Source: Escherichia coli
GTDB lineage: Bacteria; Pseudomonadota; Gammaproteobacteria; Enterobacterales; Enterobacteriaceae
Strand: one strand, 5' to 3'
Assembly (NCBI RefSeq): GCF_050920415.1
Contig: NZ_CP169309.1
DNA: 64,000 nucleotides
Below the pieces are notes generated by a model. That model searched no databases and was not told the DNA's origin. It worked only from the letters and a program-made list of their open reading frames with translations. Both the position numbers and the translations under genes were made by a program. Positions 46,512-57,026 of the stretch are shown here, one piece after another; positions within the stretch are counted from its first letter, which is position 1; the number at the start of each line of letters is the position of its first letter.

Positions 46512-47915
46512 ATGGAGATGTATTTTAAAAGAATGAAAGATGAGTGGACCGGACTTGTCGAACAGGCAGATCCGCTCATTCGTGCCAAAGCCGCGGAAAT
46601 TGCCGTTGCGCATGCCCATTACCTGAGCATTGAGTTTTATCGGATTGTCCGTATTGACCCGCATGCCGAAGAATTCTTGAGTAATGAACAAGTTGAGCGG
46701 CAGCTGAAAAGTGCGATGGAACGCTGGATTATTAATGTGCTTTCTGCCCAGGTTGACGATGTTGAAAGGCTAATACAAATCCAGCATACCGTCGCAGAAG
46801 TGCATGCCCGCATCGGCATTCCAGTAGAAATTGTCGAGATGGGGTTTCGGGTGCTGAAAAAAATCCTCTATCCGGTGATTTTCTCTTCGGATTATTCTGC
46901 CGCAGAAAAACTTCAGGTCTACCATTTCTCGATTAACAGTATTGATATCGCGATGGAAGTCATGACCCGCGCGTTTACCTTTAGTGACAGTAGTGCCTCA
47001 AAAGAAGATGAAAACTATCGTATCTTCTCGTTACTGGAAAACGCCGAAGAAGAAAAAGAACGCCAAATAGCCTCAATCCTTTCATGGGAAATTGACATTA
47101 TCTATAAAGTTCTGCTGGATTCTGATTTAGGCAGTAGTTTGCCTTTAAGCCAGGCTGATTTTGGCCTGTGGTTTAACCATAAAGGTCGACATTATTTTAG
47201 CGGCATTGCCGAAGTGGGTCATATCTCCCGCCTGATTCAGGATTTCGACGGTATTTTTAATCAAACCATGCGTAATGCAAAAAATTTGAGCAACAAAACT
47301 CTGCGGGTGAGATTTTTATTACAGATAAGAAATACCGTATCGCAAATTATTACCTTGCTGCGTGAATTATTTGAAGAAGTATCTCGCCACGAAGTGGGTA
47401 TGGATGTACTGACAAAATTACTTAACCGCCGCTTCCTGCCGACCATCTTTAAACGCGAAATTGCCCATGCCAACCGGACCGGAACCCCCCTGTCAGTGCT
47501 GATTATTGACGTTGATAAATTCAAAGAGATCAACGATACGTGGGGCCATAACACCGGTGATGAAATTTTGCGTAAAGTTTCTCAGGCCTTTTACGACAAC
47601 GTCCGCAGTAGTGATTATGTTTTTCGTTACGGGGGAGATGAATTTATCATTGTCCTGACTGAAGCTTCTGAAAACGAAACGTTACGTACTGCAGAACGTA
47701 TTCGCAGTCGGGTGGAGAAAACCAAACTGAAAGCCGCAAACGGCGAAGATATTGCCCTCTCACTTTCCATCGGTGCCGCCATGTTTAATGGTCATCCTGA
47801 CTATGAGCGCCTCATTCAAATAGCCGATGAAGCTCTGTATACGCCAAAAGACGAGGTAGAAACCGTGTTGAACTCTGGAAAGCCAGTCTTTAGATGCGCC
47901 AGGATGCAGAGGTAA
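46512..47915 (+). CDS. dosC: DosC, globin-coupled diguanylate cyclase, with a frameshifted C-terminus in this sequence
   Basis: Globin sensor plus GGDEF domain (RYGGDEFI). From about codon 444 the frame no longer encodes the GGDEF tail; the conserved AKRRGRNRVELWKASL is encoded in the +1 frame (47843-47893). The shifted ORF runs to a TAA at 47913-47915, 2 nt before the dosP start. Confidence 0.85.
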   Translation: MEMYFKRMKDEWTGLVEQADPLIRAKAAEIAVAHAHYLSIEFYRIVRIDPHAEEFLSNEQVERQLKSAMERWIINVLSAQVDDVERLIQIQHTVAEVHARIGIPVEIVEMGFRVLKKILYPVIFSSDYSAAEKLQVYHFSINSIDIAMEVMTRAFTFSDSSASKEDENYRIFSLLENAEEEKERQIASILSWEIDIIYKVLLDSDLGSSLPLSQADFGLWFNHKGRHYFSGIAEVGHISRLIQDFDGIFNQTMRNAKNLSNKTLRVRFLLQIRNTVSQIITLLRELFEEVSRHEVGMDVLTKLLNRRFLPTIFKREIAHANRTGTPLSVLIIDVDKFKEINDTWGHNTGDEILRKVSQAFYDNVRSSDYVFRYGGDEFIIVLTEASENETLRTAERIRSRVEKTKLKAANGEDIALSLSIGAAMFNGHPDYERLIQIADEALYTPKDEVETVLNSGKPVFRCARMQR

Positions 47916-47917
47916 TC

Positions 47918-50317
47918 ATGAAGCTAACCGATGCGGATAATGCCGCCGATGGCATTTTTTTCCCCGCCCTTGAGCAAAATATGATGGGCGCGGTGTTAAT
48001 TAACGAAAATGATGAAGTGATGTTTTTCAACCCCGCCGCAGAGAAACTCTGGGGGTACAAACGCGAAGAAGTCATTGGCAAAAACATTGATATGCTGATT
48101 CCGCGAGATTTGCGTCCCGCGCATCCTGAATACATCCGTCACAACCGTGAAGGCGGTAAAGCGCGCGTCGAGGGGATGAGTCGGGAGCTGCAGCTGGAGA
48201 AAAAAGACGGCAGTAAAATCTGGACCCGTTTTGCGCTATCGAAAGTGAGCGCCGAGGGTAAAATTTATTACCTGGCGCTGGTACGGGATGCCAGCGTAGA
48301 AATGGCGCAAAAAGAACAGACCCGACAATTGATTATTGCTGTTGACCATCTCGACCGACCGGTGATTGTCCTCGATCCGGAACGCCATATTGTGCAGTGC
48401 AATCGCGCATTTACCGAAATGTTTGGTTACTGCATTAGCGAAGCCAGCGGTATGCAGCCCGATACACTCCTGAACATTCCAGAATTCCCTGCTGATAACC
48501 GCATTCGTTTACAACAGTTGCTATGGAAAACCGCCCGCGATCAGGACGAATTTCTGCTGTTGACGCGCACCGGTGAAAAAATCTGGATTAAAGCCTCTAT
48601 CAGCCCGGTCTATGATGTGCTCGCGCATCTGCAGAACCTGGTAATGACTTTCTCGGATATCACCGAAGAACGGCAAATCCGCCAGCTTGAAGGCAATATT
48701 CTCGCCGCCATGTGCAGCAGCCCGCCATTTCATGAAATGGGGGAAATCATTTGTCGTAACATCGAATCTGTTCTCAACGAATCGCATGTTTCGCTGTTCG
48801 CGCTGCGCAACGGGATGCCGATACACTGGGCGTCATCTTCGCACGGTACAGAAGTTCAAAATGCGCAAAGCTGGTCAGCGACCATTCGTCAGCGTGACGG
48901 CGCACCGGCGGGGATCCTGCAAATTAAAACCTCGTCAGGAGCAGAAACCAGCGCCTTTATCGAACGCGTGGCAGATATCAGCCAGCATATGGCCGCGCTG
49001 GCGCTGGAACAGGAAAAAAGCCGTCAGCATATTGAACAACTCATCCAATTTGATCCGATGACCGGTCTGCCAAATCGCAATAACCTGCACAATTACCTCG
49101 ATGACCTGGTCGACAAAGCCGTCTCTCCGGTGGTCTATCTCATCGGTGTTGACCATATTCAGGATGTGATTGATAGCCTTGGCTATGCGTGGGCCGATCA
49201 GGCATTGCTGGAAGTGGTCAATCGCTTTCGTGAAAAACTCAAACCGGATCAGTATCTCTGTCGTATCGAAGGTACGCAGTTTGTCCTCGTGAGCCTGGAA
49301 AACGACGTCAGCAACATTACCCAAATCGCCGATGAGCTACGGAATGTGGTCAGCAAGCCGATAATGATTGACGATAAACCATTCCCGCTCACCTTGAGCA
49401 TTGGCATCAGCTACGACGTGGGTAAAAACCGCGATTACCTGCTCTCCACTGCCCATAACGCGATGGATTATATTCGCAAGAATGGCGGTAACGGCTGGCA
49501 GTTCTTCAGCCCGGTGATGAACGAAATGGTGAAAGAACGATTGATATTAGGCGCAGCGCTGAAAGATGCGATTAGCAATAACCAACTGAAACTGGTTTAC
49601 CAACCGCAAATCTTCGCAGAAACGGGTGAACTGTATGGTATCGAAGCCCTTGCTCGCTGGCACGATCCTCTGCATGGTCATGTGCCCCCTTCACGGTTTA
49701 TTCCTCTCGCAGAAGAGATTGGCGAAATCGAAAATATTGGGCGCTGGGTCATCGCGGAAGCTTGCCGTCAGTTAGCAGAATGGCGTAGCCAGAATATTCA
49801 TATTCCAGCGTTATCCGTTAACTTGTCTGCGCTGCACTTCCGCAGTAATCAGCTTCCTAATCAGGTGTCTGATGCAATGCAAGTCTGGGGCATTGACGGC
49901 CACCAGCTAACGGTGGAAATCACCGAAAGCATGATGATGGAACACGATACCGAAATTTTTAAGCGCATCCAGATCCTGCGCGATATGGGCGTGGGTTTAT
50001 CGGTAGATGATTTTGGTACGGGTTTTTCCGGGTTATCCCGCTTAGTCAGTCTTCCGGTAACGGAAATCAAAATTGACAAAAGTTTTGTTGATCGTTGTCT
50101 GACTGAAAAACGCATCCTTGCCTTACTTGAAGCTATTACCAGCATTGGGCAAAGCCTCAATTTAACCGTCGTAGCGGAAGGCGTCGAAACCAAAGAGCAA
50201 TTTGAGATGCTACGCAAGATTCACTGTCGCGTTATTCAGGGATATTTCTTTTCCCGCCCCCTGCCCGCCGAAGAAATTCCAGGCTGGATGAGTAGCGTGT
50301 TACCGCAGAAAATCTGA
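47918..50317 (+). CDS. dosP: DosP, haem-PAS c-di-GMP phosphodiesterase
   Basis: 799 aa from the ATG at 47918; PAS domains, degenerate GGDEF and EAL domain (EAL motif, QPQIF region). Confidence 0.9.
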   Translation: MKLTDADNAADGIFFPALEQNMMGAVLINENDEVMFFNPAAEKLWGYKREEVIGKNIDMLIPRDLRPAHPEYIRHNREGGKARVEGMSRELQLEKKDGSKIWTRFALSKVSAEGKIYYLALVRDASVEMAQKEQTRQLIIAVDHLDRPVIVLDPERHIVQCNRAFTEMFGYCISEASGMQPDTLLNIPEFPADNRIRLQQLLWKTARDQDEFLLLTRTGEKIWIKASISPVYDVLAHLQNLVMTFSDITEERQIRQLEGNILAAMCSSPPFHEMGEIICRNIESVLNESHVSLFALRNGMPIHWASSSHGTEVQNAQSWSATIRQRDGAPAGILQIKTSSGAETSAFIERVADISQHMAALALEQEKSRQHIEQLIQFDPMTGLPNRNNLHNYLDDLVDKAVSPVVYLIGVDHIQDVIDSLGYAWADQALLEVVNRFREKLKPDQYLCRIEGTQFVLVSLENDVSNITQIADELRNVVSKPIMIDDKPFPLTLSIGISYDVGKNRDYLLSTAHNAMDYIRKNGGNGWQFFSPVMNEMVKERLILGAALKDAISNNQLKLVYQPQIFAETGELYGIEALARWHDPLHGHVPPSRFIPLAEEIGEIENIGRWVIAEACRQLAEWRSQNIHIPALSVNLSALHFRSNQLPNQVSDAMQVWGIDGHQLTVEITESMMMEHDTEIFKRIQILRDMGVGLSVDDFGTGFSGLSRLVSLPVTEIKIDKSFVDRCLTEKRILALLEAITSIGQSLNLTVVAEGVETKEQFEMLRKIHCRVIQGYFFSRPLPAEEIPGWMSSVLPQKI

Positions 50318-50330
50318 CAAATCCCTCTCG

Positions 50331-50353
50331 CCCGCACTCGCGGGTTTTCATTT
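50331..50353 (+). terminator. Intrinsic terminator after dosP
   Basis: Short GC hairpin (cccgc actc gcggg) followed by TTTTCATTT. Confidence 0.5.
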
Positions 50354-56594: not shown

Positions 56595-57026
56595 TTACGA
56601 TTTCAACTGGTAATCCAGCGTAATTTCCGCTTTCAGTACCTGAGAAACCGGGCATCCTGCTTTTGCTTTCTGGATAATGCCGTCAAAGGTAGAGGCATCA
56701 ATACCCGGCACGGCAACTTCGCTCTTCAGGGCGATTTTAGTAATCGCAAACCCGGCATCCACTTTATCCAGCGACACATCGGCGGTGGTATCAATCGATG
56801 TTGGCGTGAATCCCGCTTCCCCCAGCATTAATGAAAGCGCCATTGAGAAACATGCTGCATGCGCCGCGCCAATCAGTTCTTCAGGGTTAGTTCCTTTTTC
56901 GCCTTCAAAACGCGTATTAAATCCATACGGCTGTTGGTTCAGCACGCCGCTCTCGGTGGATACGGTTCCCTTCCCGCGTTTGATATCGCCTTCCCAGTGT
57001 GCCTGACCTTTCTTATGGATTGTCAT
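56595..57026 (-). CDS. osmC: Osmotically inducible peroxiredoxin OsmC
   Basis: 143 aa; OsmC/Ohr family with both conserved cysteines. Confidence 0.95.
   Translation of the reverse strand: MTIHKKGQAHWEGDIKRGKGTVSTESGVLNQQPYGFNTRFEGEKGTNPEELIGAAHAACFSMALSLMLGEAGFTPTSIDTTADVSLDKVDAGFAITKIALKSEVAVPGIDASTFDGIIQKAKAGCPVSQVLKAEITLDYQLKS

Follow-up and report, generated by a model that had tools for sequence, protein, structure and literature searches.

The stretch of DNA analysed here (hereafter the window; 64,000 nts of the Escherichia coli contig NZ_CP169309.1) carries dosC, also known as dgcO or yddV, on its plus strand. In the list of open reading frames, dosC extends over positions 46512..47915 and consists of 467 codons followed by a TAA stop at 47913-47915; its product starts with MEMYFKRMKDEW and ends with ...ADEALYTPKDEVETVLNSGKPVFRCARMQR. 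The downstream gene dosP is intact (47918..50317, plus strand, 799 aa plus stop, with the start as annotated in three RefSeq genomes), and a terminator-like hairpin located at 50330..50345 on the same strand closes the dosCP operon. This layout is consistent with the known organization of dosCP (PMC11543664). Pfam analysis of the 467-aa DosC identifies a Protoglobin domain (residues 26-155), the middle domain DosC_2nd (180-289) and a GGDEF domain (297-448, E = 1.5e-47), and the protein matches the PDB structures of DosC domains 4zva, 4zvb, 4zvc and 4zve, the last of which is the GGDEF domain (residues 297-460). The product has therefore the architecture of the globin-coupled sensor DosC/DgcO, i.e., Protoglobin, middle and GGDEF domains encoded upstream of dosP. 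Compared with wild-type DosC (DgcO/YddV, 460 aa, 4zve), it is the same gene, with the same digH-dosC-dosP-ddpX synteny, the same three domains and the same residues 1-443, while residues 444-460 are replaced by 24 unrelated residues, with loss of G449, R450, N451 and the terminal strand.

The origin of this foreign C-terminus is a single missing nucleotide. The sequence-only reading of the locus had proposed a one-base deletion near 47841-47843 and had called for an alignment with reference dosC; this alignment bears the proposal out, as it contains one gap only, a T missing at codon 444. More precisely, region 47780-47930 aligned with strains MFDS1022581, N96 and O157:H7 PV15-279 gives 151 identical columns and one gap, and the same junction is found in the whole-window comparison with MFDS1022581 and with N96 as outgroup: one T of the ancestral TATATC is gone between 47841 and 47842 (plus strand), leaving TATAC, and the loss falls in codon 444 (ATC, Ile). 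From this point the gene is read in the shifted frame, which encodes the 24 foreign residues TPKDEVETVLNSGKPVFRCARMQR and ends with the TAA (47841..47915, plus strand); residues 1-443 are thus wild type and residues 444-467 constitute the shifted tail, which swaps 17 residues (444-460) for 24 and extends the protein by 7. The ancestral tail frame is still present in the DNA, intact but out of frame, at 47843..47893 on the plus strand. As had been claimed for the +1 frame starting at 47843, it reads AKRRGRNRVELWKASL, identical to the C-terminus of 4zve_A, followed by TAG at 47891-47893. Consequently, the product is not the canonical 460-aa DosC ending in ...AKRRGRNRVELWKASL but the 467-aa protein with the shifted tail. 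The canonical frame is recovered, again in agreement with the earlier reading, when the T is re-inserted, which gives a 1383-nt, 460-codon gene, every base of which equals the dosC of MFDS1022581. The lost T thus accounts for the whole difference, and no other indel compensates for it in dosC. Neither is the site a chance match, because the region equals thousands of genomes save one base: a 501-nt query at this site matches 5,350 of the 5,426 complete E. coli genomes, with a subject span of 502 nt among the matches listed. Overall, dosC displays a single, frame-changing and derived indel with respect to intact orthologues, as found in a recent pseudogene, and all the coordinates given in the first description were found correct on re-check.

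We then considered how frequent this allele is. An 86-nt probe centred on the deletion was compared with the complete E. coli records: the 5,315 records found all align at 95-99% identity, as a single gap would produce, with no record at 99% or more. Hence, 0 of 5,315 complete E. coli records carry the deletion, which also rules out the possibility, raised at the outset, that the shifted C-terminus is the common allele. Likewise, the exact 467-aa protein is not present among about 15 billion catalogued proteins, and a 34-nt DNA pattern across the deletion was not found in the genome_contigs and metagenome_contigs collections. Searching with the shifted tail yielded three short fragment ORFs and no full-length DosC with such a tail; one of these matches (P0003) is an alternative-frame ORF of the wild-type DNA. 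The DosP sequence of the window recurs in public assemblies (at least 119 blocks), and in 24 of the 24 contigs with identical DosP that were examined the neighbouring gene encodes a 460-aa DosC. The deletion allele is a singleton, private to one genome; a common or recurrent allele is ruled out by the 0/5,315 count together with the searches of the protein and contig collections.

The effect of the frameshift on the GGDEF domain was analysed residue by residue. The GGDEF A-site motif (47631..47645, plus strand; residues 374-378) is unaffected, and the RSSD I-site located just upstream of it (residues 365-368) is unaltered. The metal- and base-binding Asp/Asn residues, known as D327, N335 and D344 in PleD, are also in place: D333, D335, N341 and D350 are all present and correspond to the invariant columns D37, D39, N45 and D54 of the GGDEF alignment. 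On the other hand, the shifted tail introduces the substitutions I444T, A445P, R447D, R448E, G449V, R450E and N451T, followed by unrelated sequence. The sequence-only reading held that the conserved C-terminal motif of the GGDEF domain had been replaced, and this stands, since A445, G449, R450 and N451 are changed and the last strand is replaced, with the nuance that K446 is retained by coincidence. The weight of these positions can be seen in a set of 290 GGDEF domains, taken from the best 150 representatives in a library of 1.84 billion proteins, in which A445 is conserved in 90% of the domains, K446 in 93%, G449 in 96%, R450 in 80% (plus 6% with K) and N451 in 66% (plus 23% with D). Among 31 sampled sequences K446 and G449 do not vary at all, and nearly all homologue matches extend through GRNRV.

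The AKxxGR[ND] motif contains the phosphate-binding Lys and Arg, and in the window it is disrupted by A445P, G449V, R450E and N451T. A phmmer alignment to PleD places PleD K442 and R446 at DosC K446 and R450, respectively. In PleD, GTP is held by this pair through its beta/gamma phosphates, and GGDEF domains without their equivalents have been called inactive (PMC3509222, PMC7288161). Structure prediction points in the same direction. The AlphaFold2 model of the wild-type domain has a mean pLDDT of 95, remaining at 96-97 as far as residue 456, and comprises a helix (431-447), a loop (448-452) and the terminal strand (453-457). The frameshift sets in at the last turn of this helix, the final one of the domain. 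The helix of the mutant model stops at residue 443 and the pLDDT of the tail falls to 41-52, so that the predicted fold lacks the complete last helix and the terminal beta-strand, although, for a mutant protein, the confidence of AlphaFold2 says little about stability.

These observations can be arranged in a likely sequence of events. One T would have been lost from codon 444 of dosC in the very recent ancestry of the strain. Residues 1-443 are untouched; they comprise the globin and middle domains and the larger part of the GGDEF domain, A-site and RxxD I-site included. The replaced segment would correspond to the C-terminal end of the final helix, the loop with G449, R450 and N451, and the last beta-strand. 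With it DosC loses R450, the equivalent of PleD R446 and a putative GTP-phosphate binder. We infer that, with GTP not properly positioned and the last strand lost, the 467-aa DosC is catalytically dead or nearly so, its sensor and middle domain remaining; the loss of cyclase activity is well supported by this reasoning. DosC-467 would thus have little or no c-di-GMP output and may be less stable, and its binding of haem/O2 and of partner proteins could persist. The strain would end up DosC-minus and DosP-plus, with a lower c-di-GMP level locally. In the literature searched we found no mutagenesis of DosC R450 or G449, and the 16 residues of the DGC domain tested in PMC5549716 include neither of them. 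In the same study, constructs of the Bordetella homologue BpeGReg consisting only of the globin and middle domains still inhibit motility when expressed in Salmonella (PMC5549716).

The frameshift also redraws the boundary between dosC and dosP. The distance from the dosC stop to the dosP ATG is 24 nt in the wild type and only 2 nt here, the TAA being separated from the ATG at 47918-47920 by a 'tc' dinucleotide, just as the initial description had it. The Shine-Dalgarno sequence of dosP, AGAGG (47908..47912, plus strand), whose predicted duplex with the 3′ end of 16S rRNA has an energy of -7.1 kcal/mol, is now contained in the final codons (CAG AGG TAA) of the lengthened dosC frame. A further ATG, in frame with dosP, abuts the wild-type dosC TAG (TAGATG; 47894..47896, plus strand); it is the first codon of DosP in the historical 807-aa numbering (MRQDAEVI...; PMC11543664) and has a weak Shine-Dalgarno, with a duplex of -3.3 kcal/mol versus -7.1 for the ATG at 47918. 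The 807-aa DosP has been used in structural work, and the DosP of UniProt and RefSeq starts at 47918 (799 aa). In the deletion allele the ribosomes translating dosC cross the ATG at 47894 out of frame. Translation of dosP would nevertheless continue, by re-initiation at TAA-tc-ATG. Since the shifted frame is open to 2 nt before dosP, there is no untranslated gap and Rho-type polarity is not expected; reasoning from geometry only, the absence of polarity on dosP and its re-initiation at this site are plausible. An altered coupling between the two genes is possible, but the effect is probably small. An internal promoter uncoupling dosC from dosP was considered and dropped, since no sigma-70-like site was found on the plus strand between the two genes. 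Finally, some 20 nt into the dosP coding sequence, at 47939-47956 on the plus strand, there is a terminator-like hairpin (AATGCCGCCGATGGCATT) with a run of six Ts after it; it is stable in the RNA fold and could attenuate dosP relative to dosC.

Whether the missing T belongs to the strain or to its assembly was judged from the nearest genome, MFDS1022581 (NZ_CP169399.1), which differs from the window by 5 substitutions and 3 one-base indels over about 63 kb, using N96 (99% identical) as outgroup for polarity. N96 has the T at the dosC site, and this, together with the 0/5,315 carriers, argues that the deletion is the derived state. At the other testable sites the window is ancestral in four cases out of four: the A6/A7 run at 20063, where the indel is on the MFDS1022581 side, the A5/A4 run in ydeO at 30575, where the window has A5 like N96 and MFDS1022581 has A4, and the substitutions at 56657 and 60530. 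The dosC deletion is therefore the sole demonstrably derived difference of the window from MFDS1022581. Homopolymers and Dam/Dcm motifs are the usual places of systematic long-read indel errors, and the context of the deletion, TATAT|C, contains neither a homopolymer nor GATC or CCWGG. Being the only derived difference and lying in such a context, the deletion is better explained by a real, very recent mutation than by a systematic error. The alternative is that the strain really has TATATC and a normal 460-aa DosC, and that one base was dropped during base-calling or polishing. Indeed, an error would fit equally well the singleton status of the allele in every collection searched, and it would also fit a deletion that is the window's only derived difference from its nearest relatives; moreover, of the 8 point differences that separate the window from MFDS1022581, 3 are one-base indels, a high share which suggests indel errors in at least one of the two assemblies. 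However, both homopolymer indels polarise to MFDS1022581, and ydeO is intact in the window and annotated as frameshifted in MFDS1022581, a lesion or error on the latter's side. With the ancestral state at each of the four other testable sites, both homopolymer indels included, the window shows no sign of an indel-prone assembly, and the otherwise error-free sequence of about 63 kb argues for good polishing, so that an error-prone assembly is unsupported. Given the clean flanks and the non-homopolymer context, sequencing error is the less likely option: we regard the deletion as likely real, an artefact of any kind as doubtful, and a base lost in base-calling or polishing, in particular, as rather unlikely.

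Two further explanations accept the deletion as real. According to one of them the allele is not null: residual cyclase activity, or a -1 slip of the ribosome, would leave a down-tuned DosC, possibly more tightly coupled to DosP. Active products are possible from the DGC pseudogenes of Shigella (PMC11327459), and several features of the allele lend themselves to this explanation, i.e., the preserved K446, the Pfam GGDEF match reaching residue 448 and the stop-to-start spacing of 2 nt, which is the classic geometry of coupling. Furthermore, a low-level -1 slip on CCA-AAA-G (47844-47850), 3 nt past the deletion, would give K446-RRGRNRVELWKASL with only I444T and A445P changed, and the run of four As immediately downstream of the deletion could allow the Lys-tRNA to re-pair in the -1 frame. 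Yet the main product would still lack G449, R450, N451 and the terminal strand, and the slip site reads G CCA AAA, which does not fit the canonical heptamer X XXY YYZ. The codon in the A-site in frame 0, GAC, is not 'hungry', while AGA, the codon of the -1 frame, is rare. No significant RNA structure is found downstream (z = -0.32), there is no Rfam match, and the two-frame arrangement is conserved in no other genome or collection searched. A programmed frameshift or a structured RNA at the junction is thereby rejected, and we consider a functional DosC from this allele highly improbable. According to the other explanation the deletion was selected, since it would turn DosC into a catalytically silent, O2-binding scaffold associated with DosP and PNPase, with tighter dosC-dosP coupling, so that the DosC/DosP 'rheostat' would be set to a pure phosphodiesterase output. 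The deletion would then be a one-base, minimal-cost route to the DosC-minus state reached in other lineages by large deletion; we hold selection to be improbable.

The explanation that we favour, and which is probably correct, is the recent, ordinary and private pseudogenisation of dosC, a dispensable signalling gene, by the loss of one T. The distribution of dosC in the species fits with its being dispensable. A whole-gene search finds near-full-length dosC in 4,294 of the 5,426 complete E. coli genomes, and in about 1,100 of them (~20%) only about 230 nt of the dosC 3′ end are matched. For instance, the remnant of strain 5132 is a 165-nt pseudogene annotated as 'diguanylate cyclase domain-containing protein, missing N-terminus', which sits beside an intact dosP (positions 2547-2711 of locus L008). 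Since about one fifth of the genomes have just the remnant, loss of DosC is common and tolerated. In line with this, PMC5635171, citing Povolotsky and Hengge (2016) and Tagliabue et al. (2010), describes DosC as often missing from natural isolates and ties DosC/DosP to the O2-dependent control of curli and PNAG. The deletion described here, if real, would be one more, very young route to the common DosC-minus, DosP-plus state. The predicted outcome is the same for the 165-nt remnant allele and for the window, namely no DosC cyclase and DosP kept. Nevertheless, the two lesions differ: the remnant results from a large, lineage-wide deletion that took away the globin and middle domains together with most of the GGDEF domain, whereas here a single private base is missing and, unlike with the remnant, the gene can still give a protein of nearly full length whose sensor is intact.

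The allele can also be compared with other GGDEF proteins deprived of activity. In the degenerate GGDEF domains of the Myxococcus SgmT type, the absence of the K442/R446 equivalents is taken as a sign of inactivity, and the I-site may bind c-di-GMP (PMC3509222). Similarly, the dosC allele of the window has lost R450 and has an intact RSSD I-site. However, the SgmT-type domains are evolved and conserved receptors, while here we are dealing with a fresh frameshift which adds a random, probably disordered tail and keeps the GGDEF A-site and K446. The DGC pseudogenes of Shigella flexneri (dgcE, dgcQ, dgcN) represent another case, within the E. coli/Shigella lineage, of naturally mutated DGC genes from which a product is still possible (PMC11327459); in these genes the nonsense mutations lie upstream of an intact GGDEF domain, which is expressed from internal starts, whereas in our case the lesion falls within the catalytic domain.

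The gene dosC is well known and frequently lost. Beyond the annotation of this strain, the importance of the allele is small. If the deletion is real, the isolate should be scored as DosC-negative and DosP-positive with respect to the O2-dependent c-di-GMP control of PNAG and curli, and the event would count as a further independent case of the well-documented decay of dosC in E. coli; should the deletion prove to be an artefact, a corrected annotation would be the sole consequence. The allele would also offer a natural test of the role of the AKxxGR[ND] loop and of the terminal strand in GGDEF catalysis, and it could serve as a sensor-only DosC separating the scaffold from the enzymatic functions of the protein.

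The history of the gene before the deletion was examined by comparing the repaired dosC with that of K-12. The 64 nt differences are distributed over 53 synonymous and 8 non-synonymous codons (~95.4% DNA identity with the K-12/O157 allele), a proportion indicating that the gene was under purifying selection until recently. Six amino-acid changes with respect to K-12 are clustered at DosC positions 256-267, in the middle domain, and the last 200 nt of the dosC 3′ end show no differences from K-12. An allele at least 99% identical to this dosC is found in only 8 complete-genome records. Sequences of dosC/dosP occur also on plasmids in a few records (5 places). Outside the window, a 923-aa database protein (P0007) combines DosC, up to about residue 436, with DosP starting at VQNAQSWSATIRQR, and it looks like a natural dosC-dosP deletion fusion in another genome.

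The comparison with the neighbouring genomes revealed some differences elsewhere in the window. MFDS1022581 carries an IS2 element (~1.3 kb) at a site corresponding to about 14728-14733, which is not present in the window. A block of about 5.6 kb (14203-19822) is common to the window and MFDS1022581 and absent from N96; according to the annotation of MFDS1022581, it encodes a 535-aa hypothetical protein and an ankyrin-repeat protein and contains HTH and IS481 gene fragments. Finally, the SNP pair that distinguishes the window from MFDS1022581 at 16451 and 16460 corresponds to a swap of the neighbouring 9-nt repeat units CTTGCTGGT and CTTACTGGT.
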